Assembly (NCBI GenBank): GCA_963514005.1
Contig: OY740799.1
Location: forward strand, 31,124,001 to 31,188,000
Reading direction: 5' to 3'
Length of the DNA: 64,000 nt
From: Raja brachyura
Lineage: Eukaryota
In this document: in pieces, positions 209 to 64,000 of the stretch
Layout: the number at the start of each line of letters is the position of its first letter
Position numbering within the stretch: position 1 is the first letter of the stretch
Translations under genes and position numbers: made by a program
The notes under the pieces: generated by a model
Databases searched by the model: none
Told to the model about the DNA's origin: nothing
Seen by the model: the letters and a program-made list of their open reading frames with translations, nothing else

Positions 209-271
209 CTGTTGTGGAACTGGAGGTAGTCTCAGTTGTTCCAGTTGTCAAAGATGTTGTTGGTGTTGTTC
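209..271 (-). CDS. Micro-exon type A, unit 1 (63 nt, phase 1-1): GTTPTTSLTTGTTETTSSSTT
   Basis: Acceptor TTCTTTTCTATTTGCTCTCCAG, donor ACAG|GTGAGT. It is the Thr-rich core of the 186..383 ORF. Confidence 0.9.
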
Positions 272-3200: not shown

Positions 3201-6200
3201 CTGTTCTGACTATACATCAGTTACGGATATCCTGGAAGATTACCGTCTTCCAAAGACCTCAAAATCACCATGTTGTCCAATACCATTATTTGTTGAACCA
3301 TGTTTGAAAAATCTTTGAGCTGAAACAAAACTGTTTAACAGCGTTGCCATGACAAAAAAACTCCCGGAAATCTGGAGGAGGCGAAGGGAAGAGACCTTTT
3401 CTAAAAAGCGAAAATCCTTATCCATGTCAACTGAAAAATGCCAGATTTAATGCTGTTTGTGAAATTATTGTAGGCAACCAGCACCAAAAGGCCTCCTTAA
3501 TTTGGTAGTTGTTTCTATATTTTTGTGGTGAGAAACTACATTTTTGGAATAAAACAATGAACAAATATTCATGAAGAGGGGGCTATATAGAGCTTCACTA
3601 AACAAAGCACAGAGTCCAAAAGGAAAAGCCAACAAGATTGATAGATGATGATACTAACCTGATGTAGTGCTGGTGGTGGTCTCAGTTGTTGGTGTTGTTT
3701 CTAGTGAAAGAAAAGATTGCTCTATTCAAGTGGGGCAGCCAAGAGAATTGGAACGCAGATATGAAGCCATCAACAGGAATTCATCAACTGGCATATTTTA
3801 TGAAAACGTTTTACTAGTTGTCACTTTCTTCATCAGTGAATAAACCATGCGGCCATACTATACGGCTGCATTACTTTTTCCTTGTCTTTGAGAAATTGCA
3901 TCTGATCAGGCATCTAGAAAGATTGATTTGGCACAGCTGTGCAGCTGGTAGAGCTGCAGCCTCATAGTGTCATAGATTTGTATTCTATCCTAACCTCGGG
4001 TGCTGTCAGGGCTGGGATTGCACGTTCTCCCTTTCACTACCTGTGATCCCCCCAAGTTTTTAACAGAGGATGATACTGACCTGATGTAGTGGTGGTCCCA
4101 GATGTTGATGTAGTTGTTTCTAGTGAAATAAAAAAATGTTATGTTCCACTGAGACAAACAAGAGGAATAGTTATGCGGTTTAGAATCCTCCAACAGGAAT
4201 TTATCAACTGGCACCTTTTAATAAGAAATTTTACACTTGATCTTGACTTATCAGTGAATATAGCATATGGCCATACTATGCTGCTGCATTACATTTTCCT
4301 TGTCAATCAGCTGCTGAATGTCAGGGCCACCACAAATAATTCCAACTTCTTAATGTACCAACTTCAGATTTTGTGGAAGCTCAGCAAGTATTCCAAGAAC
4401 TACTGATCATAAATTTACAACATAAGCAGCGGTAAAGTGCCACAACTGTTGCAACTCCTACCTCACAGCACCAGAGACTTCAGATTGATTTGTTCCGTGG
4501 GTGCTGTGTGCATGGAGATTACATGTACTCCCTGTTATGTGTGCCTTTCCTACATGTGTGTGAAATATATTGTCACTAACCTGATGTAGTACTGGTAGTG
4601 GTCTCTGTTGTTGATGTAGTTGTTGGTGTTTCTAGTGAAAGAAAATAATGCAATATTCAACCAGGACAGCCAAGAGGAATTGGTACATAGCTAACTATTG
4701 GTAGTCAGGAAACCATCAGCAGGAATTCATATGGTGGCACACTTAATTGAAATGTTGAACAGAAGGCATTTTTGTTCTTCACAGAATAAAATTGTAGGGA
4801 AAATATAATTTTGATCAATCAGAAGCTGAATATTTCAGTGCCATCACAAATAATTCTGTTCTATCTATACACCAGTTGCAGATTTCCTGGAAGATCAACC
4901 ATCTTCCAAAGACTGCAAGGTCTACTTAATACCATCATTTCCGATAGTATGTACTGTGTGTACTATGGGTAAGCATGTCTGTTCATATGCCCCATTGATA
5001 CATGATTATCAACTTGCATAAATTGTGTTCATTATAATCATGTTTTTGATTTTTGCTATGGAATGGCCGTAGAAATTGAGAAGCAGAAAACACCAACTCA
5101 TTTCCTCCACAAATCCAAACTATTTTGAAATTGTGACAAAATTTGGTAGAATTGTTATGAGTCAAACATTGACATCTTAACATGTATATTTGCACAATTG
5201 ATGCCAATAATTTAAGCAAAGATGCAAGAAGTAAGTCACAGAGCTGATGTTAGAAATGTTGTCTCATTGTCTTCGATTTGCCAATGTTTATTGAAAGTGG
5301 TTTGACTCACCTGTTGTGGAACTGGAGGTAGTCTCAGTTGTTCCAGTTGTCAAAGATGTTGTTGGTGTTGTTCCTGGAGAGCAAATAGAAAAGAATTTAC
5401 AAATTGAATTGCAAGAGTCACCAATCAATTTCAGTACGACACTGTACATTTTCCTGAGACTGGGCTGAATTTTAACAATGTTCATTGCTTGTGCCTATGC
5501 AAAGGACATTTATTAGTAAACCAAATTTTGTTTCGTCATTTATCAAATGCACCGAAATTATAAATAGACATTGTGATTTTTAGAAGAAAGTTCTAAACTC
5601 CTTCGTTGATCAACTTTGGAACCATCATTGAGCAGAAACAAAACTGTTTAACAGCGCTGCCATGACCAAAAACTCCCGGAATAGTGGAGGAGGCGAAGGG
5701 AAGAGACCTTTTCTAAAAAGTGAAAATCCTTAGCCATGTCAACTGAAAAGTGCAGATTTAATGCTCTTTTTGAAATTATTGTAGGCAACCAGCACCAAAA
5801 GGCCTCATTAATTTGGTATTTACTTCTATATTTTCGTGGTGAGAAACTACATTTTTGGAATAAAGCAATGAACAAATATTCATGAAGAGGGTGCGATATG
5901 GAGCTTCACTAAACAAAGCACAGAATCCAAAAGGAAAAGTTAACAAGATTGATAGATGATGTTACTAACCTGATGTAGTGCTGGTGGTGGTCTCAGTTGT
6001 TGGTGTCGTTTCTAGTGAAAGAAAAGATTGCTCTATTCAAGTGGGGCAGCCAAGAGGAATTGGTACTCAGTTATAAAGCCATCAACAGGAATTCATGAGC
6101 TGGCACATTTCATGAAAGTGTTTTAATATGTAGATTGGTTACTTCTTACTAATATGCGAAGATAAACTGCTCAGCAACAACAGACTGTATCCCCCGCAGC

Positions 6201-9200
6201 CGCTCCATGGCGTTCTGCACCCAGCACGCTTATTTCACCACCTCCAATCGGTGTGTCTCCGGTGCCATCCCCGGTCACTTCCCCGTCACTTTATCGATTA
6301 ATTGAATAAAGCGTGCGATCATACTATGGGCTGCATTACTTTTTACTTGTCAATCAGCGGCTGAATAATTCAGGGTCATCATGAACAATTTCAATTTCTT
6401 AATGTACCAACTTCAGATTTTGTGGAAGCTCAGCAGTATTCTAAGAACTATTGATCAGAAATTTAGAACATAAGGAGCGGTAAAGTGCCACAACTGGCGC
6501 AACTCCTACCTCACAGCACCAGAGACATCAGATTGATTTGTTCCGTGGGTGCTGTGTACATGGAGATGACATGCCCTCCCTGTTATGTGTTGCTTTCCTA
6601 CAAGTATCTGAAATATATTTCACTAACCTGATGTGGTGCTGGTAGTGGTCTCTGTTGTTGATGTAGTTGTTGGTGTTCCTAGTGAAAGAAAATAAAGCAA
6701 TATTTAACCAAGACAGCCAAGAGGAATTGGTATACAGCTAACTATTGGTAGTCAGGAAACCATCAGCAGCAATTCATATGCTGGTACACTTTATTAAAAT
6801 GTTTAACAGATGACATTTTTGTTCAACCTAGAATAAAATGGCAAGGCAAAATATACTTTTGATAAATCAGCAGCTGAATATTTCAGTGCAATCACAAATA
6901 ATCCTGTTCTATCTATACACCAGTTGCGGATTTCCTGGAAGATCAACCGTCTTCCAAAGACTGCAAGGTCTACTTAATACCATATTTTATAATACCATTA
7001 TTAGTGGATCCATTTTTGAAAAATCTTTGAGCTGAAACAAAACTGTTTAACTGCGTTGCCATGACCAAAAACTACAGGAATAGTGGAAGAGGCGAAGGGA
7101 AGAGACCTTTTCTATAAAAGTGAAAATCCTTATCCATGTCTGCTGAAAGGTGCCAGACTCAATTCTCTTTTTAAAATTATGGCAGGCAATCAGCAACAAA
7201 TGGCCTCCTCAATTCGGTAGTTGTTTCTATATTTTCATGGTGAGAAACTACATTTTTTGAATAAAGCAATGAACAAATATTCCTGAAGAGGGGGCTATAT
7301 AGAGCTTCACTAAACAAAGCACAGAGTCCAAAAGGAAACGCTAACAAGATTGATAGATGATGTTACTAACCTGATGTAGTGCTGGTAGTGGTCTCAGTTG
7401 TTGGTGTCGTTTCTAGTGAAAGAAAATATTGCTCTATTCAAGTGGGGCAGCCAAGAGAATTGGTACGCAGTTATAAAGCCATCAACAGGAATTCATGAGC
7501 TGGCACATTTTATGAAAGTGTTTTCATGTGTAGTTTGGTTGCTTCTTACTAATATGCAAAGATAAACTGCTCAGCAACAACAGACTGTGTCCCCCGTGGC
7601 CTCTCCACGGCGTTCTGCGCCCAGCACGCTTATTTCACCACCTCGCCGGTCACTTTCCCGGACACTTCACCGGTGAATTCCCCATCACTTTACCGATTAA
7701 TTGAATAAAGCGTGCGGCCATACTATACGGCTGCATTACTTTTTCCTTGTCAATCAGCAGCTGAATATTTCAGGGCCATCATAAACAATTTCAATTTCTT
7801 AATGTACCAACTTCAGATTTTGTGGAAGCTCAGCAAGTATTCCAAGAACTACTGATCAGAAATGTCGAACATAAGGAGCGGTAAAGTGCCAAAACTGTTG
7901 CAACTCCTACCTCACAGCACCAGAGACATCAGATTGATTTGTTCCGTGGGTGTTGTGTGCATGGAGATGACATGTCCTCCCTGTTATGTATGGCTTTCCT
8001 ACAAATGTCTGAAATATATTGTCACTAACCTGATGTAGTACTGGTAGTGGTCTCAGTTATTGACGTAGTTGTTGGTGTTCCTGGTGAAAGAAAATAACGC
8101 AATATTCAACCAAGACGGCAAGAGGAATTGGTACACAGCTAACTATTGGCAGTCAAGAAACCATCAGAAGGAATTCATAGGCTGGCACGCATTATTAAAA
8201 ATTTTAACAGATGGCATTTTTGTTCTTCGTAGAATAAAATGACAGAGCAAAATATATTTGATCAATCAGCAGCTGAATATTTCTGTGCCATCACAAATAA
8301 ACCTGTTCTGACTATACATCAGTTACGGATATCCTGGAAGATTACCGTCTTCCAAAGACCTCAAAATCACCATGTTGTCCAATACCATTATTTGTTGAAC
8401 CATGTTTGAAAAATCTTTGAGCTGAAACAAAACTGTTTGACAGCGTTGCCATGACAAAAAAACTCCCGGAAATCTGGAGGAGGCGAAGGGAAGAGACCTT
8501 TTCTAAAAAGCGAAAATCCTTATCCATGTCAACTGAAAAATGCCAGATTTAATGCTGTTTGTGAGATTATTGTAGGCAACCAGCACCAAAAGGCCTCCTT
8601 AATTTGGTAGTTGTTTCTATATTTTTGTGGTGAGAAACTACATTTTTGGAATAAAACAATGAACAAATATTCATGAAGAGGGGGCTATATAGAGCTTCAC
8701 TAAACAAAGCACAGAGTCCAAAAGGAAAAGCTAACAAGATTGATAGATGATGATACTAACCTGATGTAGTGCTGGTGGTGGTCTCAGCTGTTGGTGTTGT
8801 TTCTAGTGAAAGAAAAGATTGCTCTATTCAAGTGGGGCAGCCAAGAGAATTGGAACGCAGATATGAAGCCATCAACAGGAATTCATCAACTGGCATATTT
8901 TATGAAAACGTTTTACTAGTTGTCACTTTCTTCATCAGTGAATAAACCATGCGGCCATACTATACGGCTGCATTACTTTTTCCTTGTCTTTGAGAAATTG
9001 CATCTGATCAGGCATCTAGAAATATTGATTTGGCACAGCTGTGCAGCTGGTAGAGCTGCAGCCTCATAGTGTCATAGATTTGTATTCTATCCTAACCTCG
9101 GGTGCTGTCAGGGCTGGGATTGCACGTTCTCCCTTTCACTACCTGTGATCCCCCCAAGTTTTTAACAGAGGATGATACTGACCTGATGTAGTGGTGGTCC

Positions 9201-12200
9201 CAGATGTTGATGTAGTTGTTTCTAGTGAAATAAAAAAATGTTATGTTCCACTGAGACAAACAAGAGGAATAGTTATGCGGTTTAGAATCCTCCAACAGGA
9301 ATTTATCAACTGGCACCTTTTAATAAGAAATTTTACACTTGATCTTTACTTATCAGTGAATATAGCGTATGGCCATACTATGCTGCTGCATTACTTTTTC
9401 CTTGTCAATCAGCTGCTGAATGTCAGGGCCACCACAAATAATTCCAACTTCTTAATGTACCAACTTCAGATTTTGTGGAAGCTCAGCAAGTATTCCAAGA
9501 ACTACTGATAATAAATTTACAACATAAGCAGCGGTAAAGTGCCACAACTGTTGCAACTCCTACCTCACAGCACCAGAGACTTCAGATTGATTTGTTCCGT
9601 GGGTGCTGTGTGCATGGAGATTACATGTACTCCCTGTTATGTGTGCCTTTCCTACATGTGTGTGAAATATATTGTCACTAACCTGATGTAGTACTGGTAG
9701 TGGTCTCTGTTGTTGATGTAGTTGTTGGTGTTTCTAGTGAAAGAAAATAATGCAATATTCAACCAGGACAGCCAAGAGGAATTGGTACATAGCTAACTAT
9801 TGGTAGTCAGGAAACCATCAGCAGGAATTCATATGGTGGCACACTTAATTGAAATGTTGAACAGAAGGCATTTTTGTTCTTCACAGAATAAAATTGTAGG
9901 GAAAATATAATTTTGATCAATCAGAAGCTGAATATTTCAGTGCCATCACAAATAATTCTGTTCTATCTATACACCAGTTGCAGATTTCCTGGAAGATCAA
10001 CCATCTTCCAAAGACTGCAAGGTCTACTTAATACCATCATTTCCGATAGTATGTACTGTGTGTACTATGGGTAAGCATGTCTGTTCATATGCCCCATTGA
10101 TACATGATTATCAACTTGCATAAATTGTGTTCATTATAATCATGTTTTTGATTTTTGCTATGGAATGGCCGTAGAAATTGAGAAGCAGAAAACACCAACT
10201 CATTTCCTCCACAAATCCAAACTATTTTGAAATTGTGACATAATTTGGTAGAATTGTTATGAGTCAAACATTGACATCTTAACATGTATATTTGCACAAT
10301 TTATGCCAATAATTTAAGCAAAGATGCAAGAAGTAAGTCACAGAGCTGATGTTAGAAATGTTGTCTCATTGTCTTCGATTTGCCAATGTTTATTGAAAGT
10401 GGTTTGACTCACCTGTTGTGGAACTGGAGGTAGTCTCAGTTGTTCCAGTTGTCAAAGATGTTGTTGGTGTTGTTCCTGGAGAGCAAATAGAAAAGAATTT
10501 ACAAATTGAATTGCAAGAGTCACCAATCAATTTCAGTACGACACTGTACATTTTCAAAAGACTGGGCTGAATTTTAACAATGTTCATTGCTTGTGCCTAT
10601 GCAAAGGACATTTATTAGTAAACCAAATTTTGTTTCGTCATTTATCAAATGCACCGAAATTATAAATAGACATTGTGATTTTTAGAAGAAAGTTCTAAAC
10701 TCCTTCGTTGATCAACTTTGGAACCATCATTGAGCAGAAACAAAACTGTTTAACAGCGCTGCCATGACCAAAAACTCCCGGAATAGTGGAGGAGGCGAAG
10801 GGAAGAGACCTTTTCTAAAAAGTGAAAATCCTTATCCATGTCAACTGAAAAGTGCAGATTTAATGCTCTTTTTGAAATTATTGTAGGCAACCAGCACCAA
10901 AAGGCCTCATTAATTTGGTATTTACTTCTATATTTTCGTGGTGAGAAACTACATTTTTGGAATAAAGCAATGAACAAATATTCATGAAGAGGGTGCGATA
11001 TGGAGCTTCACTAAACAAAGCACCGAATCCAAAAGGAAAAGTTAACAAGATTGATAGATGATGTTACTAACCTGATGTAGTGCTGGTGGTGGTCTCAGTT
11101 GTTGGTGTCGTTTCTAGTGAAAGAAAAGATTGCTCTATTCAAGTGGGGCAGCCAAGAGGAATTGGTACTCAGTTATAAAGCCATCAACAGGAATTCATGA
11201 GCTGGCACATTTCATGAAAGTGTTTTAATATGTAGATTGGTTACTTCTTACTAATATGCGAAGATAAACTGCTCAGCAACAACAGACTGTATCTCCCGCA
11301 GCCGCTCCATGGCGTTCTGCACCCAGCACGCTTATTTCACCACCTCCAATCGGTGTGTCTCCGGTGCCATCCCCGGTCACTTCCCCGTCACTTTATCGAT
11401 TAATTGAATAAAGCGTGCGATCATACTATGGGCTGCATTACTTTTTACTTGTCAATCAGCGGCTGAATAATTCAGGGTCATCATGAACAATTTCAATTTC
11501 TTAATATACCAACTTCAGATTTTGTGGAAGCTCAGCAGTATTCTAAGAACTATTGATCAGAAATTTAGAACATAAGGAGCGGTAAAGTGCCACAACTGGC
11601 GCAACTCCTACCTCACAGCACCAGAGACATCAGATTGATTTGTTCCGTGGGTGCTGTGTACATGGAGATGACATGCCCTCCCTGTTATGTGTTGCTTTCC
11701 TACAAGTATCTGAAATATATTTCACTAACCTGATGTGGTGCTGGTAGTGGTCTCTGTTGTTGATGTAGTTGTTGGTGTTCCTAGTGAAAGAAAATAAAGC
11801 AATATTTAACCAAGACAGCCAAGAGGAATTGGTATACAGCTAACTATTGGTAGTCAGGAAACCATCAGCAGCAATTCATATGCTGGTACACTTTATTAAA
11901 ATGTTTAACAGATGACATTTTTGTTCAACCTAGAATAAAATGGCAAGGCAAAATATACTTTTGATAAATCAGCAGCTGAATATTTCAGTGCAATCACAAA
12001 TAATCCTGTTCTATCTATACACCAGTTGCGGATTTCCTGGAAGATCAACCGTCTTCCAAAGACTGCAAGGTCTACTTAATACCATATTTTATAATACCAT
12101 TATTCGTGGATCCATTTTTGAAAAATCTTTGAGCTGAAACAAAACTGTTTAACTGCGTTGCCATGACCAAAAACTACAGGAATAGTGGAAGAGGCGAAGG

Positions 12201-45200: not shown

Positions 45201-48200
45201 GAAAGAAAATAAAGCAATATTTAACCAAGACAGCCAAGAGGAATTGGTATACAGCTAACTATTGGTAGTCAGGAAACCATCAGCAGCAATTCATATGCTG
45301 GTACACTTTATTAAAATGTTTAACAGATGACATTTTTGTTCAACCTAGAATAAAATGGCAAGGCAAAATATACTTTTGATAAATCAGCAGCTGAATATTT
45401 CAGTGCAATCACAACTAATCCTGTTCTATCTATACACCAGTTGCGGATTTCCTGGAAGATCAACCGTCTTCCAAAGACTGCAAGGTCTACTTAATACCAT
45501 ATTTTATAATACCATTATTCGTGGATCCATTTTTGAAAAATCTTTGAGCTGAAACAAAACTGTTTAACTGCGTTGCCATGACCAAAAACTACAGGAATAG
45601 TGGAAGAGGCGAAGGGAAGAGACCTTTTCTGTAAAAGTGAAAATCCTTATCCATGTCTGCTGAAAGGTGCCAGACTCAATTCTCTTTTTTAAATTATGGC
45701 AGGCAATCAGCAACAAATGGCCTCCTCAATTCGGTAGTTGTTTCTATATTTTCATGGTGAGAAACTACATTTTTTGAATAAAGCAATGAACAAATATTCC
45801 TGAAGAGGGGGCTATATAGAGCTTCACTAAACAAAGCACAGAGTCCAAAAGGAAACGCTAACAAGATTGATAGATGATGTTACTAACCTGATGTAGTGCT
45901 GGTAGTGGTCTCAGTTGTTGGTGTCGTTTCTAGTGAAAGAAAAGATTGCTCTATTCAAGTGGGGCAGCCAAGAGAATTGGTACGCAGTTATAAAGCCATC
46001 AACAGGAATTCATGAGCTGGCACATTTTATGAAAGTGTTTTCATGTGTAGTTTGGTTGCTTCTTACTAATATGCAAAGATAAACTGCTCAGCAACAACAG
46101 ACTGTGTCCCCCGTGGCCTCTCCACGGCGTTCTGCGCCCAGCACGCTTATTTCACCACCTCGCCGGTCACTTTCCCGGACACTTCACCGGTGAATTCCCC
46201 ATCACTTTACCGATTAATTGAATAAAGCGTGCGGCCATACTATACGGCTGCATTACTTTTTCCTTGTCAATCAGCAGCTGAATATTTCAGGGCCATCATA
46301 AACAATTTCAATTTCTTAATGTACCAACTTCAGATTTTGTGGAAGCTCAGCAAGTATTCCAAGAACTACTGATCAGAAATGTCGAACATAAGGAGCGGTA
46401 AAGTGCCAAAACTGTTGCAACTCCTACCTCACAGCACCAGAGACATCAGATTGATTTGTTCCGTGGGTGTTGTGTGCATGGAGATGACATGTCCTCCCTG
46501 TTATGTGTGGCTTTCCTACAAATGTCTGAAATATATTGTCACTAACCTGATGTAGTACTGGTAGTGGTCTCAGTTATTGATGTAGTTGTTGGTGTTCCTG
46601 GTGAAAGAAAATAACGCAATATTCAACCAAGACGGCAAGAGGAATTGGTACACAGCTAACTATTGGCAGTCAAGAAACCATCAGAAGGAATTCATAGGCT
46701 GGCACGCATTATTAAAAATTTTAACAGATGGCATTTTTGTTCTTCGTAGAATAAAATGACAGAGCAAAATATATTTGATCAATCAGCAGCTGAATATTTC
46801 TGTGCCATCACAAATAAACCTGTTCTGACTATACATCAGTTACGGATATCCTGGAAGATTACCGTCTTCCAAAGACCTCAAAATCACCATGTTGTCCAAT
46901 ACCATTATTTGTTGAACCATGTTTGAAAAATCTTTGAGCTGAAACAAAACTGTTTAACAGCGTTGCCATGACAAAAAAACTCCCGGAAATCTGGAGGAGG
47001 CGAAGGGAAGAGACCTTTTCTAAAAAGCGAAAATCCTTATCCATGTCAACTGAAAAATGCCAGATTTAATGCTGTTTGTGAGATTATTGTAGGCAACCAG
47101 CACCAAAAGGCCTCCTTAATTTGGTAGTTGTTTCTATATTTTTGTGGTGAGAAACTACATTTTTGGAATAAAACAATGAACAAATATTCATGAAGAGGGG
47201 GCTATATAGAGCTTCACTAAACAAAGCACAGAGTCCAAAAGGAAAAGCTAACAAGATTGATAGATGATGATACTAACCTGATGTAGTGCTGGTGGTGGTC
47301 TCAGTTGTTGCTGTTGTTTCTAGTGAAAGAAAAGATTGCTCTATTCAAGTGGGGCAGCCAAGAGAATTGGAACGCAGATATGAAGCCATCAACAGGAATT
47401 CATCAACTGGCATATTTTATGAAAACGTTTTACTAGTTGTCACTTTCTTCATCAGTGAATAAACCATGCGGCCATACTATACGGCTGCATTACTTTTTCC
47501 TTGTCTTTGAGAAATTGCATCTGATCAGGCATCTAGAAATATTGATTTGGCACAGCTGTGCAGCTGGTAGAGCTGCAGCCTCATAGTGTCATAGATTTGT
47601 ATTCTATCCTAACCTCGGGTGCTGTCAGGGCTGGGATTGCACGTTCTCCCTTTCACTACCTGTGATCCCCCCAAGTTTTTAACAGAGGATGATACTGACC
47701 TGATGTAGTGGTGGTCCCAGATGTTGATGTAGTTGTTTCTAGTGAAATAAAAAAATGTTATGTTCCACTGAGACAAACAAGAGGAATTGTTATGCGGTTT
47801 AGAATCCTCCAACAGGAATTTATCAACTGGCACCTTTTAATAAGAAATTTTACACTTGATCTTTACTTATCAGTGAATATAGCGTATGGCCATACTATGC
47901 TGCTGCATTACTTTTTCCTTGTCAATCAGCTGCTGAATGTCAGGGCCACCACAAATAATTCCAACTTCTTAATGTACCAACTTCAGATTTTGTGGAAGCT
48001 CAGCAAGTATTCCAAGAACTACTGATCATAAATTTACAACATAAGCAGCGGTAAAGTGCCACAACTGTTGCAACTCCTACCTCACAGCACCAGAGACTTC
48101 AGATTGATTTGTTCCGTGGGTGCTGTGTGCATGGAGATTACATGTACTCCCTGTTATGTGTGCCTTTCCTACATGTGTGTGAAATATATTGTCACTAACC

Positions 48201-51200
48201 TGATGTAGTACTGGTAGTGGTCTCTGTTGTTGATGTAGTTGTTGGTGTTTCTAGTGAAAGAAAATAATGCAATATTCAACCAGGACAGCCAAGAGGAATT
48301 GGTACATAGCTAACTATTGGTAGTCAGGAAACCATCAGCAGGAATTCATATGGTGGCACACTTAATTGAAATGTTGAACAGAAGGCATTTTTGTTCTTCA
48401 CAGAATAAAATTGTAGGGAAAATATAATTTTGATCAATCAGAAGCTGAATATTTCAGTGCCATCACAAATAATTCTGTTCTATCTATACACCAGTTGCAG
48501 ATTTCCTGGAAGATCAACCATCTTCCAAAGACTGCAAGGTCTACTTAATACCATCATTTCCGATAGTATGTACTGTGTGTACTATGGGTAAGCATGTCTG
48601 TTCATATGCCCCATTGATACATGATTATCAACTTGCATAAATTGTGTTCATTATAATCATGTTTTTGATTTTTGCTATGGAATGGCCGTAGAAATTGAGA
48701 AGCAGAAAACACCAACTCATTTCCTCCACAAATCCAAACTATTTTGAAATTGTGACAAAATTTGGTAGAATTGTTATGAGTCAAACATTGACATCTTAAC
48801 ATGTATATTTGCACAATTTATGCCAATAATTTAAGCAAAGATGCAAGAAGTAAGTCACAGAGCTGATGTTAGAAATGTTGTCTCATTGTCTTCGATTTGC
48901 CAATGTTTATTGAAAGTGGTTTGACTCACCTGTTGTGGAACTGGAGGTAGTCTCAGTTGTTCCAGTTGTCAAAGATGTTGTTGGTGTTGTTCCTGGAGAG
49001 CAAATAGAAAAGAATTTACAAATTGAATTGCAAGAGTCACCAATCAATTTCAGTACGACACTGTACATTTTCAAAAGACTGGGCTGAATTTTAACAATGT
49101 TCATTGCTTGTGCCTATGCAAAGGACATTTATTAGTAAACCAAATTTTGTTTCGTCATTTATCAAATGCACCGAAATTATAAATAGACATTGTGATTTTT
49201 AGAAGAAAGTTCTAAACTCCTTCGTTGATCAACTTTGGAACCATCATTGAGCAGAAACAAAACTGTTTAACAGCGCTGCCATGACCAAAAACTCCCGGAA
49301 TAGTGGAGGAGGCGAAGGGAAGAGACCTTTTCTAAAAAGTGAAAATCCTTATCCATGTCAACTGAAAAGTGCAGATTTAATGCTCTTTTTGAAATTATTG
49401 TAGGCAACCAGCACCAAAAGGCCTCATTAATTTGGTATTTACTTCTATATTTTCGTGGTGAGAAACTACATTTTTGGAATAAAGCAATGAACAAATATTC
49501 ATGAAGAGGGTGCGATATGGAGCTTCACTAAACAAAGCACCGAATCCAAAAGGAAAAGTTAACAAGATTGATAGATGATGTTACTAACCTGATGTAGTGC
49601 TGGTGGTGGTCTCAGTTGTTGGTGTCGTTTCTAGTGAAAGAAAAGATTGCTCTATTCAAGTGGGGCAGCCAAGAGGAATTGGTACTCAGTTATAAAGCCA
49701 TCAACAGGAATTCATGAGCTGGCACATTTCATGAAAGTGTTTTAATATGTAGATTGGTTACTTCTTACTAATATGCGAAGATAAACTGCTCAGCAACAAC
49801 AGACTGTATCCCCCGCAGCCGCTCCATGGCGTTCTGCACCCAGCAAGCTTATTTCACCACCTCCAATCGGTGTGTCTCCAGTGCCATCCCCGGTCACTTC
49901 CCCGTCACTTTATCGATTAATTGAATAAAGCGTGCGATCATACTATGGGCTGCATTACTTTTTACTTGTCAATCAGCGGCTGAATAATTCAGGGTCATCA
50001 TGAACAATTTCAATTTCTTAATATACCAACTTCAGATTTTGTGGAAGCTCAGCAGTATTCTAAGACCTATTGATCAGAAATTTAGAACATAAGGAGCGGT
50101 AAAGTGCCACAACTGGCGCAACTCCTACCTCACAGCACCAGAGACATCAGATTGATTTGTTCCGTGGGTGCTGTGTACATGGAGATGACATGCCCTCCCT
50201 GTTATGTGTTGCTTTCCTACAAGTATCTGAAATATATTTCACTAACCTGATGTGGTGCTGGTAGTGGTCTCTGTTGTTGATGTAGTTGTTGGTGTTCCTA
50301 GTGAAAGAAAATAAAGCAATATTTAACCAAGACAGCCAAGAGGAATTGGTATACAGCTAACTATTGGTAGTCAGGAAACCATCAGCAGCAATTCATATGC
50401 TGGTACACTTTATTAAAATGTTTAACAGATGACATTTTTGTTCAACCTAGAATAAAATGGCAAGGCAAAATATACTTTTGATAAATCAGCAGCTGAATAT
50501 TTCAGTGCAATCACAACTAATCCTGTTCTATCTATACACCAGTTGCGGATTTCCTGGAAGATCAACCGTCTTCCAAAGACTGCAAGGTCTACTTAATACC
50601 ATATTTTATAATACCATTATTCGTGGATCCATTTTTGAAAAATCTTTGAGCTGAAACAAAACTGTTTAACTGCGTTGCCATGACCAAAAACTACAGGAAT
50701 AGTGGAAGAGGCGAAGGGAAGAGACCTTTTCTGTAAAAGTGAAAATCCTTATCCATGTCTGCTGAAAGGTGCCAGACTCAATTCTCTTTTTTAAATTATG
50801 GCAGGCAATCAGCAACAAATGGCCTCCTCAATTCGGTAGTTGTTTCTATATTTTCATGGTGAGAAACTACATTTTTTGAATAAAGCAATGAACAAATATT
50901 CCTGAAGAGGGGGCTATATAGAGCTTCACTAAACAAAGCACAGAGTCCAAAAGGAAACGCTAACAAGATTGATAGATGATGTTACTAACCTGATGTAGTG
51001 CTGGTAGTGGTCTCAGTTGTTGGTGTCGTTTCTAGTGAAAGAAAAGATTGCTCTATTCAAGTGGGGCAGCCAAGAGGAATTGGTACTCAGTTATAAAGCC
51101 ATCAACAGGAATTCATGAGCTGGCACATTTCATGAAAGTGTTTTAATATGTAGATTGGTTACTTCTTACTAATATGCGAAGATAAACTGCTCAGCAACAA

Positions 51201-54200
51201 CAGACTGTATCCCCCGCAGCCGCTCCATGGCGTTCTGCACCCAGCAAGCTTATTTCACCACCTCCAATCGGTGTGTCTCCAGTGCCATCCCCGGTCACTT
51301 CCCCGTCACTTTATCGATTAATTGAATAAAGCGTGCGATCATACTATGGGCTGCATTACTTTTTACTTGTCAATCAGCGGCTGAATAATTCAGGGTCATC
51401 ATGAACAATTTCAATTTCTTAATATACCAACTTCAGATTTTGTGGAAGCTCAGCAGTATTCTAAGACCTATTGATCAGAAATTTAGAACATAAGGAGCGG
51501 TAAAGTGCCACAACTGGCGCAACTCCTACCTCACAGCACCAGAGACATCAGATTGATTTGTTCCGTGGGTGCTGTGTACATGGAGATGACATGCCCTCCC
51601 TGTTATGTGTTGCTTTCCTACAAGTATCTGAAATATATTTCACTAACCTGATGTGGTGCTGGTAGTGGTCTCTGTTGTTGATGTAGTTGTTGGTGTTCCT
51701 AGTGAAAGAAAATAAAGCAATATTTAACCAAGACAGCCAAGAGGAATTGGTATACAGCTAACTATTGGTAGTCAGGAAACCATCAGCAGCAATTCATATG
51801 CTGGTACACTTTATTAAAATGTTTAACAGATGACATTTTTGTTCAACCTAGAATAAAATGGCAAGGCAAAATATACTTTTGATAAATCAGCAGCTGAATA
51901 TTTCAGTGCAATCACAACTAATCCTGTTCTATCTATACACCAGTTGCGGATTTCCTGGAAGATCAACCGTCTTCCAAAGACTGCAAGGTCTACTTAATAC
52001 CATATTTTATAATACCATTATTCGTGGATCCATTTTTGAAAAATCTTTGAGCTGAAACAAAACTGTTTAACTGCGTTGCCATGACCAAAAACTACAGGAA
52101 TAGTGGAAGAGGCGAAGGGAAGAGACCTTTTCTGTAAAAGTGAAAATCCTTATCCATGTCTGCTGAAAGGTGCCAGACTCAATTCTCTTTTTTAAATTAT
52201 GGCAGGCAATCAGCAACAAATGGCCTCCTCAATTCGGTAGTTGTTTCTATATTTTCATGGTGAGAAACTACATTTTTTGAATAAAGCAATGAACAAATAT
52301 TCCTGAAGAGGGGGCTATATAGAGCTTCACTAAACAAAGCACAGAGTCCAAAAGGAAACGCTAACAAGATTGATAGATGATGTTACTAACCTGATGTAGT
52401 GCTGGTAGTGGTCTCAGTTGTTGGTGTCGTTTCTAGTGAAAGAAAAGATTGCTCTATTCAAGTGGGGCAGCCAAGAGAATTGGTACGCAGTTATAAAGCC
52501 ATCAACAGGAATTCATGAGCTGGCACATTTTATGAAAGTGTTTTCATGTGTAGTTTGGTTGCTTCTTACTAATATGCAAAGATAAACTGCTCAGCAACAA
52601 CAGACTGTGTCCCCCGTGGCCTCTCCACGGCGTTCTGCGCCCAGCACGCTTATTTCACCACCTCGCCGGTCACTTTCCCGGACACTTCACCGGTGAATTC
52701 CCCATCACTTTACCGATTAATTGAATAAAGCGTGCGGCCATACTATACGGCTGCATTACTTTTTCCTTGTCAATCAGCAGCTGAATATTTCAGGGCCATC
52801 ATAAACAATTTCAATTTCTTAATGTACCAACTTCAGATTTTGTGGAAGCTCAGCAAGTATTCCAAGAACTACTGATCAGAAATGTCGAACATAAGGAGCG
52901 GTAAAGTGCCAAAACTGTTGCAACTCCTACCTCACAGCACCAGAGACATCAGATTGATTTGTTCCGTGGGTGTTGTGTGCATGGAGATGACATGTCCTCC
53001 CTGTTATGTGTGGCTTTCCTACAAATGTCTGAAATATATTGTCACTAACCTGATGTAGTACTGGTAGTGGTCTCAGTTATTGATGTAGTTGTTGGTGTTC
53101 CTGGTGAAAGAAAATAACGCAATATTCAACCAAGACGGCAAGAGGAATTGGTACACAGCTAACTATTGGCAGTCAAGAAACCATCAGAAGGAATTCATAG
53201 GCTGGCACGCATTATTAAAAATTTTAACAGATGGCATTTTTGTTCTTCGTAGAATAAAATGACAGAGCAAAATATATTTGATCAATCAGCAGCTGAATAT
53301 TTCTGTGCCATCACAAATAAACCTGTTCTGACTATACATCAGTTACGGATATCCTGGAAGATTACCGTCTTCCAAAGACCTCAAAATCACCATGTTGTCC
53401 AATACCATTATTTGTTGAACCATGTTTGAAAAATCTTTGAGCTGAAACAAAACTGTTTAACAGCGTTGCCATGACAAAAAAACTCCCGGAAATCTGGAGG
53501 AGGCGAAGGGAAGAGACCTTTTCTAAAAAGCGAAAATCCTTATCCATGTCAACTGAAAAATGCCAGATTTAATGCTGTTTGTGAGATTATTGTAGGCAAC
53601 CAGCACCAAAAGGCCTCCTTAATTTGGTAGTTGTTTCTATATTTTTGTGGTGAGAAACTACATTTTTGGAATAAAACAATGAACAAATATTCATGAAGAG
53701 GGGGCTATATAGAGCTTCACTAAACAAAGCACAGAGTCCAAAAGGAAAAGCTAACAAGATTGATAGATGATGATACTAACCTGATGTAGTGCTGGTGGTG
53801 GTCTCAGTTGTTGGTGTTGTTTCTAGTGAAAGAAAAGATTGCTCTATTCAAGTGGGGCAGCCAAGAGAATTGGAACGCAGATATGAAGCCATCAACAGGA
53901 ATTCATCAACTGGCATATTTTATGAAAACGTTTTACTAGTTGTCACTTTCTTCATCAGTGAATAAACCATGCGGCCATACTATACGGCTGCATTACTTTT
54001 TCCTTGTCTTTGAGAAATTGCATCTGATCAGGCATCTAGAAATATTGATTTGGCACAGCTGTGCAGCTGGTAGAGCTGCAGCCTCATAGTGTCATAGATT
54101 TGTATTCTATCCTAACCTCGGGTGCTGTCAGGGCTGGGATTGCACGTTCTCCCTTTCACTACCTGTGATCCCCCCAAGTTTTTAACAGAGGATGATACTG

Positions 54201-57200
54201 ACCTGATGTAGTGGTGGTCCCAGATGTTGATGTAGTTGTTTCTAGTGAAATAAAAAAATGTTATGTTCCACTGAGACAAACAAGAGGAATAGTTATGCGG
54301 TTTAGAATCCTCCAACAGGAATTTATCAACTGGCACCTTTTAATAAGAAATTTTACACTTGATCTTTACTTATCAGTGAATATAGCGTATGGCCATACTA
54401 TGCTGCTGCATTACTTTTTCCTTGTCAATCAGCTGCTGAATGTCAGGGCCACCACAAATAATTCCAACTTCTTAATGTACCAACTTCAGATTTTGTGGAA
54501 GCTCAGCAAATATTCCAAGAACTACTGATCATAAATTTACAACATAAGCAGCGGTAAAGTGCCACAACTGTTGCAACTCCTACCTCACAGCACCAGAGAC
54601 TTCAGATTGATTTGTTCCGTGGGTGCTGTGTGCATGGAGATTACATGTACTCCCTGTTATGTGTGCCTTTCCTACATGTGTGTGAAATATATTGACACTA
54701 ACCTGATGTAGTACTGGTAGTGGTCTCTGTTGTTGATGTAGTTGTTGGTGTTTCTAGTGAAAGAAAATAATGCAATATTCAACCAGGACAGCCAAGAGGA
54801 ATTGGTACATAGCTAACTATTGGTAGTCAGGAAACCATCAGCAGGAATTCATATGGTGGCACACTTAATTGAAATGTTGAACAGAAGGCATTTTTGTTCT
54901 TCACAGAATAAAATTGTAGGGAAAATATAATTTTGATCAATCAGAAGCTGAATATTTCAGTGCCATCACAAATAATTCTGTTCTATCTATACACCAGTTG
55001 CAGATTTCCTGGAAGATCAACCATCTGCCAAAGACTGCAAGGTCTACTTAATACCATCATTTCCGATAGTATGTACTGTGTGTACTATGGGTAAGCATGT
55101 CTGTTCATATGCCCCATTGATACATGATTATCAACTTGCATAAATTGTGTTCATTATAATCATGTTTTTGATTTTTGCTATGGAATGGCCGTAGAAATTG
55201 AGAAGCAGAAAACACCAACTCATTTCCTCCACAAATCCAAACTATTTTGAAATTGTGACATAATTTGGTAGAATTGTTATGAGTCAAACATTGACATCTT
55301 AACATGTATATTTGCACAATTTATGCCAATAATTTAAGCAAAGATGCAAGAAGTAAGTCACAGAGCTGATGTTAGAAATGTTGTCTCATTGTCTTCGATT
55401 TGCCAATGTTTATTGAAAGTGGTTTGACTCACCTGTTGTGGAACTGGAGGTAGTCTCAGTTGTTCCAGTTGTCAAAGATGTTGTTGGTGTTGTTCCTGGA
55501 GAGCAAATAGAAAAGAATTTACAAATTGAATTGCAAGAGTCACCAATCAATTTCAGTACGACACTGTACATTTTCAAAAGACTGGGCTGAATTTTAACAA
55601 TGTTCATTGCTTGTGCCTATGCAAAGGACATTTATTAGTAAACCAAATTTTGTTTCGTCATTTATCAAATGCACCGAAATTATAAATAGACATTGTGATT
55701 TTTAGAAGAAAGTTCTAAACTCCTTCGTTGATCAACTTTGGAACCATCATTGAGCAGAAACAAAACTGTTTAACAGCGCTGCCATGACCAAAAACTCCCG
55801 GAATAGTGGAGGAGGCGAAGGGAAAAGACCTTTTCTAAAAAGTGAAAATCCTTATCCATGTCAACTGAAAAGTGCAGATTTAATGCTCTTTTTGAAATTA
55901 TTGTAGGCAACCAGCACCAAAAGGCCTCATTAATTTGGTATTTACTTCTATATTTTTGTGGTGAGAAACTACATTTTTGGAATAAAGCAATGAACAAATA
56001 TTCATGAAGAGGGTGCGATATGGAGCTTCACTAAACAAAGCACCGAATCCAAAAGGAAAAGTTAACAAGATTGATAGATGATGTTACTAACCTGATGTAG
56101 TGCTGGTGGTGGTCTCAGTTGTTGGTGTCGTTTCTAGTGAAAGAAAAGATTGCTCTATTCAAGTGGGGCAGCCAAGAGGAATTGGTACTCAGTTATAAAG
56201 CCATCAACAGGAATTCATGAGCTGGCACATTTCATGAAAGTGTTTTAATATGTAGATTGGTTACTTCTTACTAATATGCGAAGATAAACTGCTCAGCAAC
56301 AACAGACTGTATCCCCCGCAGCCGCTCCATGGCGTTCTGCACCCAGCACGCTTATTTCACCACCTCCAATCGGTGTGTCTCCGGTGCCATCCCCGGTCAC
56401 TTCCCCGTCACTTTATCGATTAATTGAATAAAGCGTGCGATCATACTATGGGCTGCATTACTTTTTACTTGTCAATCAGCGGCTGAATAATTCAGGGTCA
56501 TCATGAACAATTTCAATTTCTTAATATACCAACTTCAGATTTTGTGGAAGCTCAGCAGTATTCTAAGACCTATTGATCAGAAATTTAGAACATAAGGAGC
56601 GGTAAAGTGCCACAACTGGCGCAACTCCTACCTCACAGCACCAGAGACATCAGATTGATTTGTTCCGTGGGTGCTGTGTACATGGAGATGACATGCCCTC
56701 CCTGTTATGTGTTGCTTTCCTACAAGTATCTGAAATATATTTCACTAACCTGATGTGGTGCTGGTAGTGGTCTCTGTTGTTGATGTAGTTGTTGGTGTTC
56801 CTAGTGAAAGAAAATAAAGCAATATTTAACCAAGACAGCCAAGAGGAATTGGTATACAGCTAACTATTGGTAGTCAGGAAACCATCAGCAGCAATTCATA
56901 TGCTGGTACACTTTATTAAAATGTTTAACAGATGACATTTTTGTTCAACCTAGAATAAAATGGCAAGGCAAAATATACTTTTGATAAATCAGCAGCTGAA
57001 TATTTCAGTGCAATCACAAATAATCCTGTTCTATCTATACACCAGTTGCGGATTTCCTGGAAGATCAACCGTCTTCCAAAGACTGCAAGGTCTACTTAAT
57101 ACCATATTTTATAATACCATTATTCGTGGATCCATTTTTGAAAAATCTTTGAGCTGAAACAAAACTGTTTAACTGCGTTGCCATGACCAAAAACTACAGG

Positions 57201-63200: not shown

Positions 63201-64000
63201 CCTGTTATGTGTGGCTTTCCTACAAATGTCTGAAATATATTGTCACTAACCTGATGTAGTACTGGTAGTGGTCTCAGTTATTGATGTAGTTGTTGGTGTT
63301 CCTGGTGAAAGAAAATAACGCAATATTCAACCAAGACGGCAAGAGGAATTGGTACACAGCTAACTATTGGCAGTCAAGAAACCATCAGAAGGAATTCATA
63401 GGCTGGCACGCATTATTAAAAATTTTAACAGATGGCATTTTTGTTCTTCGTAGAATAAAATGACAGAGCAAAATATATTTGATCAATCAGCAGCTGAATA
63501 TTTCTGTGCCATCACAAATAAACCTGTTCTGACTATACATCAGTTACGGATATCCTGGAAGATTAACGTCTTCCAAAGACCTCAAAATCTACTGAACGCC
63601 ATGTGGTCTAATACCAGTATTTGTTGATCCATTTTTGAAAATTCTTTGAGCTGAAACAAAACTGTTAAACAGCGTTGTCATGACAAAAAACTCCAGGAAT
63701 AGTGGAAGAGGCGAAGGGCAGAGACCTTTTCTATAAAAGTGAAAATCCTTATCCATGTCTGGTGAACAGTGCCAGACTCAATTCTCTTTATAAAATTATT
63801 GCAGGCAACCAGCAACAAAAGGCCTCCTTAATTCGGTAGTTGTTTCTATATTTTCGTGGTGAGAAACTATATTTTTGGAATAAAACAATGAACAAATATT
63901 CATGAAGTGGGGCCTATTTCGAGCTTCACCATAAAAAGTACAGAGTCCAAAAGGAAAATCTAACAAGATTGATAGATGATGATACTAACCTGATGTAGTG
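209..64000 (-). CDS. Internal portion of a giant multi-micro-exon gene encoding a mucin-like Thr/Ser-rich (PTS) domain; 99 complete exons plus 1 partial, ~1573 codons; both gene ends lie outside the window
   Basis: Each Thr-codon-rich block on the minus strand is preceded by a polypyrimidine tract + YAG (mostly TTTTCTTTCACTAG) and followed by GTTAGT, GTCAGT or GTGAGT. All are 3n long and phase 1-1, and they join into a stop-free frame. Unit peptide in transcript order H-G-F-E-D-C-B-A: ETPTTTSTTETTTSTTS ETTTSTSGTTTTS ETTPTTETTTSTTS GTPTTTSITETTTSTTS ETTPTTETTTSTTS GTPTTTSTTETTTSTTS ETTPTTETTTSTTS GTTPTTSLTTGTTETTSSSTT (79 T, 22 S, 12 E, 7 P, 5 G, 1 I, 1 L). Confidence 0.88.
868..909 (-). CDS. 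Micro-exon type B, unit 1 (42 nt): ETTPTTETTTSTTS
   Basis: Acceptor TCTTTTCTTTCACTAG, donor TCAG|GTTAGT. Confidence 0.88.
1047..1195 (-). mobile_element. ~149-bp GC/CpG-rich intronic insertion, possibly a small non-autonomous element (paralogue at 2447-2594; present in every unit)
   Basis: Absent from the homologous F-G and G-H introns (G-H intron 461 nt vs 616/617 nt). Minus-strand ends are A|TC...TTAG|T and it contains 12-bp internal repeats. The class assignment is tentative. Confidence 0.4.
1526..1576 (-). CDS. Micro-exon type C, unit 1 (51 nt): GTPTTTSTTETTTSTTS
   Basis: Acceptor TTTATTTTCTTTCACTAG, donor TCAG|GTTAGT. Confidence 0.88.
2269..2310 (-). CDS. Micro-exon type D, unit 1 (42 nt): ETTPTTETTTSTTS
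   Basis: Paralogue of exon B at +1401; same splice sites; differs from B only at synonymous Thr codons. Confidence 0.88.
2544..2591. repeat. Degenerate 12-bp minisatellite (4 copies) inside the intronic insertion; paralogue at ~1146-1192
   Basis: ccggtcactttc ccggacacttca ccggtgaattcc ccatcactttac. Confidence 0.75.
2928..2978 (-). CDS. Micro-exon type E, unit 1 (51 nt): GTPTTTSITETTTSTIS (ends ...STTS in most units)
   Basis: Acceptor TTATTTTCTTTCACCAG; donor GTCAGT in units 1 and 6, GTTAGT in the others. Confidence 0.87.
3659..3700 (-). CDS. Micro-exon type F, unit 1 (42 nt): ETTPTTETTTSTTS
   Basis: Acceptor TCTTTTCTTTCACTAG, donor TCAG|GTTAGT. Confidence 0.88.
4081..4119 (-). CDS. Micro-exon type G, unit 1 (39 nt): ETTTSTSGTTTTS
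   Basis: Acceptor TTTTTTTATTTCACTAG, donor TCAG|GTCAGT. Confidence 0.86.
4581..4631 (-). CDS. Micro-exon type H, unit 1 (51 nt): ETPTTTSTTETTTSTTS
   Basis: Acceptor TTATTTTCTTTCACTAG, donor TCAG|GTTAGT. Confidence 0.88.
5311..9733 (-). CDS. Unit 2 exon set (8 micro-exons)
   Basis: A 5311-5373, B 5970-6011, C 6628-6678, D 7371-7412, E 8030-8080, F 8761-8802 (T>A variant at 8788), G 9183-9221, H 9683-9733. Confidence 0.86.
10413..14835 (-). CDS. Unit 3 exon set (8 micro-exons)
   Basis: A 10413-10475, B 11072-11113, C 11730-11780, D 12473-12514, E 13132-13182, F 13863-13904 (T>A variant), G 14285-14323, H 14785-14835. Confidence 0.86.
15515..19937 (-). CDS. Unit 4 exon set (8 micro-exons)
   Basis: A 15515-15577, B 16174-16215, C 16832-16882, D 17575-17616, E 18234-18284, F 18965-19006, G 19387-19425, H 19887-19937. 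Confidence 0.86.
20617..25039 (-). CDS. Unit 5 exon set (8 micro-exons)
   Basis: A 20617-20679, B 21276-21317, C 21934-21984, D 22677-22718, E 23336-23386, F 24067-24108, G 24489-24527, H 24989-25039. Confidence 0.86.
25719..29629 (-). CDS. Unit 6 exon set (7 intact micro-exons; exon H has lost its acceptor)
   Basis: A 25719-25781, B 26378-26419 (E>V at 26419), C 27036-27086, D 27779-27820, E 28438-28488, F 29169-29210, G 29591-29629. Confidence 0.85.
30091..30141 (-). pseudogene. Probable pseudo-exon: unit 6 copy of exon H with acceptor AG>GG
   Basis: + strand reads gtttccagtgaaag here versus gtttctagtgaaag in all other H copies (t>c at 30143), so the minus strand has CACTGG instead of CACTAG. 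The same change creates the unique 29968..30198 ORF. Confidence 0.75.
30821..35243 (-). CDS. Unit 7 exon set (8 micro-exons)
   Basis: A 30821-30883, B 31480-31521, C 32138-32188, D 32881-32922, E 33540-33590, F 34271-34312, G 34693-34731, H 35193-35243. Confidence 0.86.
35923..40346 (-). CDS. Unit 8 exon set (8 micro-exons; 1-bp intronic insertion at ~36365)
   Basis: A 35923-35985, B 36583-36624, C 37241-37291, D 37984-38025, E 38643-38693, F 39374-39415, G 39796-39834, H 40296-40346. Confidence 0.86.
41026..48250 (-). CDS. Unit 9 exon set (12 micro-exons; C+D pair triplicated)
   Basis: A 41026-41088, B 41685-41726, C 42343-42393, D' 43086-43127, C 43744-43794, D' 44487-44528, C 45145-45195, D 45888-45929, E 46547-46597, F 47278-47319 (P>A at 47311), G 47700-47738, H 48200-48250. 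Confidence 0.85.
41727..45929. repeat. Three tandem copies of a 1401-bp sub-unit (intron, exon C, intron, exon D) inside unit 9
   Basis: Copies 41727-43127, 43128-44528, 44529-45929; the MARQN... ORF recurs at 42553, 43954 and 45355. Confidence 0.97.
48930..54753 (-). CDS. Unit 10 exon set (10 micro-exons; C+D pair duplicated)
   Basis: A 48930-48992, B 49589-49630, C 50247-50297, D' 50990-51031, C 51648-51698, D 52391-52432, E 53050-53100, F 53781-53822, G 54203-54241, H 54703-54753. Confidence 0.85.
49631..52432. repeat. Two tandem copies of the 1401-bp sub-unit inside unit 10
   Basis: Copies 49631-51031 and 51032-52432; ORF recurs at 50457 and 51858. Confidence 0.97.
55433..59852 (-). CDS. 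Unit 11 exon set (8 micro-exons; 3-bp intronic deletion at ~57465)
   Basis: A 55433-55495, B 56092-56133, C 56750-56800, D 57490-57531, E 58149-58199, F 58880-58921, G 59302-59340, H 59802-59852. Confidence 0.86.
60532..63301 (-). CDS. Unit 12 (partial) exon set (5 micro-exons)
   Basis: A 60532-60594, B 61191-61232, C 61849-61899, D 62592-62633, E 63251-63301. Confidence 0.86.
63566..63989. repeat. Diverged paralogous intron marking the edge of the homogeneous array
   Basis: From 63566 the sequence departs from the E-F intron consensus by many substitutions and is 8 bp longer up to the next exon (63990 vs expected 63982). Confidence 0.9.
63990..64000 (-). CDS. 3' end of a further B/D/F-like exon, cut by the window edge
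   Basis: gatactaac|ctgatgtagtg, i.e. ...CACTACATCAG|GTTAGT on the minus strand. Confidence 0.75.

Follow-up and report, generated by a model that had tools for sequence, protein, structure and literature searches.

The window analysed here is a 64,000-nt stretch of the Raja brachyura genome (C19:31,124,001-31,188,000, C19 being the contig that contains it), and 1,064 kb around and including it was fetched. Its exons, which are predictions from DNA, belong to one gene on the minus strand, here called gene B, with the order signal-D1-D2-D'-D3-PTS-VWC-CK. A signal-like first exon lies at C19:31,236,082 and is followed by D-domain exons at 31,233-31,204 kb, by an array of short repeat (PTS) exons that extends past both ends of the window (C19 ~31,199-31,038 kb), and by VWC-like and cystine-knot exons reaching 31,026 kb. 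VWD, C8 and TIL matches were obtained in 10 of the 13 exon frames upstream (5') of the array. Three VWD-C8-TIL units occur within the N-terminal part, the exons of which are colinear with residues ~33-1198 of mucin-19-like proteins. The two Cys_knot matches (E 8.8e-05 and 0.036) fall just short of the curated cut-off or below it, and the VWC-like exons match P0012 and no Pfam family. No match to a fourth VWD was found between the end of the array and the last exon. A search with the D3 exon returned 16 proteins, of which 13 are named mucin-19 or mucin-19-like, one mucin-6-like and two are unnamed, these names being automatic annotations; the best matches were mucin-19-like proteins of sharks, rays and chimaera (59-73% identity). 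The window is thereby predicted to be the Thr/Ser repeat region of a gel-forming mucin resembling Muc19, which we take, from knowledge of the family, to be secreted, disulfide-linked and densely O-glycosylated. In its predicted layout gene B agrees with the definition of Muc19/Muc6 given in PMC4948705.

Gene B lies in a cluster of related genes. About ten D3-exon homologues were found within C19:30.6-33.2 Mb, whereas three Muc19 paralogues are reported for Callorhinchus in the pertinent passage of PMC4948705. The D3 exon of gene B is 45-93% identical to its C19 paralogues versus 34-51% to those of a separate cluster on another contig (C18). ARM_LRRK2 exons are present at C19:32.85-32.89 Mb on the same strand, with mucin D3 homologues on either side, and 1.3 Mb of the same contig separate LRRK2 from the top of paralogue A. 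LRRK2 and MUC19 are adjacent in mammals. An earlier COR-A search had missed LRRK2 at the locus, and a Pfam scan of 150 of the 731 flanking frames detected no neighbour genes, only mobile-element and PHD matches. As in vertebrate Muc19 and spiggin, there are three VWD-C8-TIL units, a PTS region, no fourth VWD and a VWC-like and cystine-knot C-terminus, near LRRK2; unlike in these, the PTS region is split into 232 exons across 160 kb. Paralogue A, with flanks ~85-92% identical, contains 132 exons of this kind, its unit being one of six exons. Paralogue D of the same cluster encodes its PTS region as a single reading frame of 965 codons.

Downstream of gene B, at 30,997-30,893 kb, lies gene C, which has its own PTS array. 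No signal or D1-D3 exons of gene C were found in the 30 kb after gene B. It starts with an open duplicate of the final D3-region exon, whose phase fits the preceding donor of gene B, and retains open CysD, VWD-like (a fourth VWD), C8 and cystine-knot exons. Its PTS exons are partly damaged, with one 53-nt copy and two GC donors. Gene C could be a truncated copy in decay, or it could serve as an alternative 3' half.

In the window, a motif scan detected 100 minus-strand donor motifs. Of the 100 corresponding exon copies, 99 lie entirely within 209-63301; the remaining 42-nt exon is cut by the window edge and has its donor at 63990. The features referred to below are as follows, in window positions.

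209..63301, minus strand: middle stretch of gene B's (Muc19-like) PTS (mucin) exon array, 99 exon copies by motif scan
9683..9733, minus strand: exon type H, 51 nt, donor GTTAGT, transcribed first in a representative 5,102-bp unit
9183..9221, minus strand: exon type G, 39 nt, donor GTCAGT
8761..8802, minus strand: exon type F, 42 nt, donor GTTAGT
8030..8080, minus strand: exon type E, 51 nt, donor GTTAGT (the copies at 28438 and 2928 have GTCAGT)
7371..7412, minus strand: exon type D, 42 nt, donor GTTAGT
6628..6678, minus strand: exon type C, 51 nt, donor GTTAGT
5970..6011, minus strand: exon type B, 42 nt, donor GTTAGT
5311..5373, minus strand: exon type A, 63 nt, donor GTGAGT, present 12 times in the window
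30091..30141, minus strand: type H copy with acceptor AG>GG
26378..26419, minus strand: type B copy starting with TA, junction codon Val, frame intact
41026..48929, minus strand: expanded unit of 7,904 bp with 12 exons, two additional 51+42 pairs (~1.4-kb sub-unit) gained in DNA
48930..55432, minus strand: expanded unit of 6,503 bp with 10 exons, one additional 51+42 pair

AG and GT flank 98 of the 99 copies; the type H copy at 30091-30141, if its variant is real, would be skipped or would use a cryptic site. The 98 intact copies are 42 nt (38), 51 nt (37), 63 nt (12) or 39 nt (11) long, and every one is a multiple of three with phase 1-1, as the sequence-only reading had stated. All 100 exons end in CAG, also as stated. 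The claimed AA or GA start applies to 97 of the 98 (58 AA, 39 GA), the exception being the TA-starting type B copy. Any exon can nevertheless be joined to any other in frame; this copy yields a Val codon and keeps the frame. The donors are GTTAGT (73), GTCAGT (13) and GTGAGT (12), the last confined to the 63-nt exon A, in agreement with the earlier description.

The array is built on two scales, a basic unit of 5,102 bp and an inner sub-unit of 1.4 kb, and identity between units is ~99%. The order of the types is not the fixed series of eight that had been proposed, as one unit in the window has 10 exons and another has 12. In composition the window exons are 62% Thr, 17% Ser and 5.5% Pro, and each short exon is predicted from DNA to carry one repeat, as in a multi-exon PTS layout. 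A scan of 664 kb gave 389 matches on the minus strand and one on the plus strand, the latter an inverted copy of exon A. All 389 minus-strand exons, across genes A, B and C, are multiples of three in phase 1. The array is not a chance pattern, given this strand bias and given that all 389 are multiples of three although the scan set no constraint on length. Tandem Repeats Finder reported no repeats on the array, the periods of which exceed its 500-base limit. A 63-nt version of the 42-nt exons, extended from an upstream AG, was rejected for its poor pyrimidine tract.

Over the whole of gene B, the PTS region comprises 232 intact exons (11,043 nt, 3,681 aa), mostly of 39-63 nt. These encode only 18 distinct, near-identical peptides, and the term combinatorial, applied earlier to their possible isoforms, overstates this variety. 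Length variation is already present in the DNA. Seventeen of the 28 A-to-A units are within 25 bp of 5,102 bp, and the others range from 3,779 to 9,497 bp. Of the 236 copies, four appear to be dead: one A is inverted, one G lacks its acceptor and two carry AG>GG. Another copy is an intact exon of 15 nt, and none of the 236 was found to be frameshifted. Contigs of X2 and X6, the latter a different organism, span the breakpoint of the inversion by which a copy of exon A was lost; loss of an A exon has therefore been tolerated. Because copies are dead or missing in the genome, joins of the H>F and A>G kind should arise without regulated skipping, and H>F, earlier put forward as a test junction, is therefore not diagnostic. 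By length class, exons never lie next to each other in gene B as 63>63, 51>51, 42>42, 39>39, 39>63 or 63>42. Among the 17 near-identical units, exons are no more conserved than introns (variable sites 10/381 in exons versus 95/4519 in introns, p=0.46), a comparison that neither helps nor hurts the case for selection on inclusion. Introns are covered by contigs of four runs.

The symmetry of the exons had been taken as the sign of a cassette system. This is not supported. For types B-H, 20 of the 21 pairs of upstream intron flanks align better than any of 60 shuffles, H versus G being the exception, and downstream flanks are also common within H/E/C and within F/D/B. The intron flanks of exon A have no detectable relation to those of types B-H. 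Seven of the eight exon types (B-H) thus descend from one module, with A as a separate lineage. The array is preceded by an exon ending in phase 1 and followed by one that begins in phase 1, whereas the phases of 23 D-domain introns of gene B are mixed (9, 11 and 3 for phases 0, 1 and 2). A module copied tandemly in a phase-1 gap must be a multiple of three with phase 1-1, because otherwise the frame breaks, and one or two origins with selection for an open frame would yield the 99 symmetric exons. Symmetry is for this reason weak evidence for cassette splicing, and the pyrimidine at donor position +3 would likewise be one inherited state. In human, tandem duplication is a frequent origin of disordered symmetric exons, according to part of PMC3632108. 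Table 3 of the same paper gives 1-1 exons as 21.3% of alternative versus 11.1% of constitutive exons, an excess that would by analogy favour the earlier view, modestly.

The donors other than that of exon A had also been described as non-consensus. Two measures of their strength disagree. Reference introns were placed by protein alignment, 62 of 77 being kept and 15 dropped as doubtful. In pairing with the 5' end of the U1 of this genome, the common array donors reach -8.8 to -12.2 kcal/mol, versus a median of -6.5 for 23 presumed constitutive donors of gene B, and they at least equal 19-22 of these 23, the figure for CAG|GTTAGT and CAG|GTCAGT being 19-21. They pair strongly because positions -3 to -1 and +4 to +6 are perfect. 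On a small matrix of 38 local donors from genes B and D, in which T occurs once at +3 and C never, GTTAGT ranks at or above 10 of the 38 and GTCAGT 7, in the lower third, while the GTGAGT of exon A ranks at or above 34. Array acceptors are average or better on the local matrix. The donor of exon A is strongest by both tests, as supposed, and the other array donors are within the constitutive range; the role of exon A as an anchor is doubtful, as one of its copies is lost by inversion in a second organism too.

These observations probably describe a VNTR-like array of exon-intron modules that is spliced largely in order and varies mainly via recombination. The 39-63-nt exons would be tandem copies of one or two exon-plus-intron modules, and all copies would preserve the frame likely because only such copies survive in the phase-1 gap. 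Unequal crossing-over or conversion may both build and homogenise the array, with recombination as the main source of heritable length change, and the repeat exons are predicted to be spliced in mostly in genomic order. Rare dead copies would be missing from the mRNA without harm. If live copies are now and then skipped, this would be tolerated noise, each exon contributing ~0.5% of a 3,680-residue domain. The intactness of 232 of the 236 copies, the single PTS reading frame of paralogue D and the one splice variant of chicken MUC2 (see below) support this reading. Against it stand the local rarity of a pyrimidine at +3 (1 of 38 donors), the matrix ranks of GTTAGT and GTCAGT, the human excess of 1-1 exons among alternative ones and the splicing polymorphism of Xenopus FIMs treated below. 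In addition, exons under ~50 nt are prone to skipping, and near-identical repeats may favour long exon jumps.

It is possible, though we think it unlikely, that live repeat exons are instead skipped frequently, including multi-unit jumps, to give a broad ladder of PTS lengths in each individual with no anchoring by exon A. The array has the capacity for in-frame skipping, every join being in frame, and a combinatorial ladder is hypothetical. The exons are very short, the donors with a +3 pyrimidine are low on the local matrix, with exon A highest, and splicing of this kind has a precedent in FIM-C.1 (PMC7177656) and was proposed for chicken Muc13 (PMC1552070), as far as the passages on these genes go. 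However, pairing with U1 exceeds the average, one ancestor passed on both the symmetry and the +3 base, and 18 peptides give little sequence variety. For chicken MUC2, the corresponding part of PMC3549977 gives one splice variant only for a multi-exon PTS region. In simulation, independent skipping at 1-50% per exon spread the length by only 0.7-6.6%, and a broad ladder therefore needs long jumps; a single random long jump per molecule gave a spread of ~36%. With 232 exons that leak at 1% each, only ~10% of molecules would be full length, so that trivial micro-variation is likely, changing little. A more elaborate scheme, to which we give little credence, places splicing on two scales: long jumps over 232 interchangeable exons would set the PTS length of each molecule, and the D1-D3 head of gene B would be spliced across 210 kb onto the headless gene C, from the exon that ends at C19:31,206,773 to one starting near C19:30,997,083, one promoter thereby serving two structurally different gel-forming mucins.

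Regulation by exon type, with exon A constitutive and B-H turned on or off according to tissue or stage so as to adjust the density of glycans, seems very unlikely. The separate lineage of exon A and its donor, the best in both tests, are in its favour, but all types encode near-identical Thr/Ser peptides, the loss of one A copy by inversion is common to another organism, and GTGAGT is also the donor of a 48-nt non-A exon of paralogue A (15 copies). We regard it as extremely improbable that the array or its variants are partly an assembly artefact, through over-expansion or through base errors, of which the GG acceptor could be one. The ~99% identity of the units would allow this, and the AG>GG acceptor of the H copy is absent from the contigs of four runs, although such contigs drop rare variants. 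On the other hand, the units bear distinct variants and insertions, the 5,102-bp unit junction was found in contigs of X1 and X6, two organisms, and the 1,064 kb contains no N. The copy number may be off, the architecture not.

The array resembles several known systems. The parallel once drawn with Schistosoma micro-exon genes holds for short exons, mostly multiples of three, in genes of secreted proteins, and remains an analogy. As those genes are described in the relevant part of bioRxiv 10.1101/2023.06.21.545858, they are schistosome-specific, have 10-20 exons, mostly of 15 nt, that make up the whole protein, and their isoforms are verified. Here, 232 near-identical repeat exons of 39-63 nt lie inside a large, conserved vertebrate VWD mucin, which places gene B outside the definition of those genes.

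Among mucins, human MUC19 has many exons. The centre of MUC19 is given as unresolved in cattle and human in the passage concerned of PMC3056801. In chicken Muc13, each PTS repeat has one exon, and control of length via splicing was proposed in 2006 (PMC1552070, in the section on this gene); the mucin domain of Xenopus tropicalis Otogl/MucXS is multi-exon in the part of PMC5789918 that treats it. Both share with gene B a PTS region spread over many exons. Chicken Muc13, with 12 or more repeats, is a SEA mucin of the transmembrane type (same section), whereas gene B is predicted to encode a secreted VWD mucin and has ~20 times more exons, in units nested at a higher order. A Muc13/SEA identity was considered for the present gene and rejected, as no SEA match was found near the locus.

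The frog skin mucins (FIMs) also consist of repeat units, and the repeat exons of gene B are symmetric and frame-preserving. Alternative splicing of repeats occurs also in the vWD mucin FIM-B.1. The precedent that the sequence-only reading had found in Xenopus FIM mucins is borne out for X. laevis FIM-C.1, described as polymorphic through alternative splicing in the passage of PMC7177656 that cites 1992 work; the same paper assigns vWD domains to FIM-B.1. Variation of the FIMs was demonstrated in transcripts, whereas gene B is known here from DNA alone, and no trefoil domain was found among the exons identified in gene B.

Titles and abstract starts in the literature yielded no paper on such an exon array in cartilaginous fish. 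The mucin layout known from chicken and frog is here extended to the Muc19 cluster of a cartilaginous fish, in a very large, fully resolved example with 232 exons, nested units, dead copies and a single-exon paralogue adjacent. The 2006 idea that splicing sets mucin length becomes directly testable. If the long jumps or the head shared with gene C were real, the properties of mucus could be tuned within one animal by splicing and not by alleles.

About ten homologues of the Muc19-like D3 exon were found on both strands of contig C19 at 30.6-33.2 Mb, around LRRK2, and make up an expanded cluster. C18 carries another mucin cluster, at 44.6-45.7 Mb. The features considered here are as follows (G000:C19 denotes contig coordinates and L-numbers denote pieces of DNA).

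G000:C19:31,557-31,369 kb: paralogue A, with a repeat unit of about 4.06 kb that holds six exons
G000:C19:30,791,100 downward (L087): PTS region of paralogue D, a single reading frame of 965 codons
G000:C19:30,997,115-30,893,082 (L028 down to L097): gene C, Muc19-like and headless
L001:5160-5736: inversion of about 580 bp containing one copy of exon A, the 63-nt type of the gene B array
G000:C19:31,043,155-31,043,141 (L032): intact micro-exon of 15 nt in the gene B array
G000:C19:31,113,458-31,117,834 (L039-L040), on the gene's strand: intronic LINE-like element in the gene B array, about 4.4 kb long
G000:C19:31,015-31,010 kb, between genes B and C: candidate DIRS-type frames
G000:C19:30,909-30,905 kb, within gene C: candidate DIRS-type frames

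Since the PTS region of paralogue D is a single frame, the cluster contains both one-exon and many-exon PTS designs. Paralogue A possesses two CysD exons, whereas gene B is without them. At the 5' edge of paralogue A, one exon copy is shortened to 50 nt, and in two others CAC precedes the donor. A PHD finger was also observed in a 216-codon frame (L072:122-769) about 140 kb past the start of paralogue A.

The first exon of gene C is the last exon of the D3 region, and neither a signal exon nor D1-D3 exons were found upstream of it. The gene carries a separate set of phase 1-1 PTS exons, a large number of which have NAGNAG acceptors, and it also has open frames for CysD, a fourth VWD-like region, C8 and a cystine knot. 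Gene C may be a truncated copy, or else an alternative 3' half of gene B.

Within the gene B array, the left breakpoint of the exon A inversion is bridged by contigs from two organisms, and the 15-nt micro-exon arose by an in-frame deletion in a 51-nt type. The LINE-like element carries a frame of 1,285 codons. It is probably recent, since over 2.6 kb it shares 99.8% identity with another copy located at 31,647-31,649 kb. The two sets of candidate DIRS-type frames appear to resemble the reverse transcriptase, RNase H and recombinase-like parts of such a retrotransposon.
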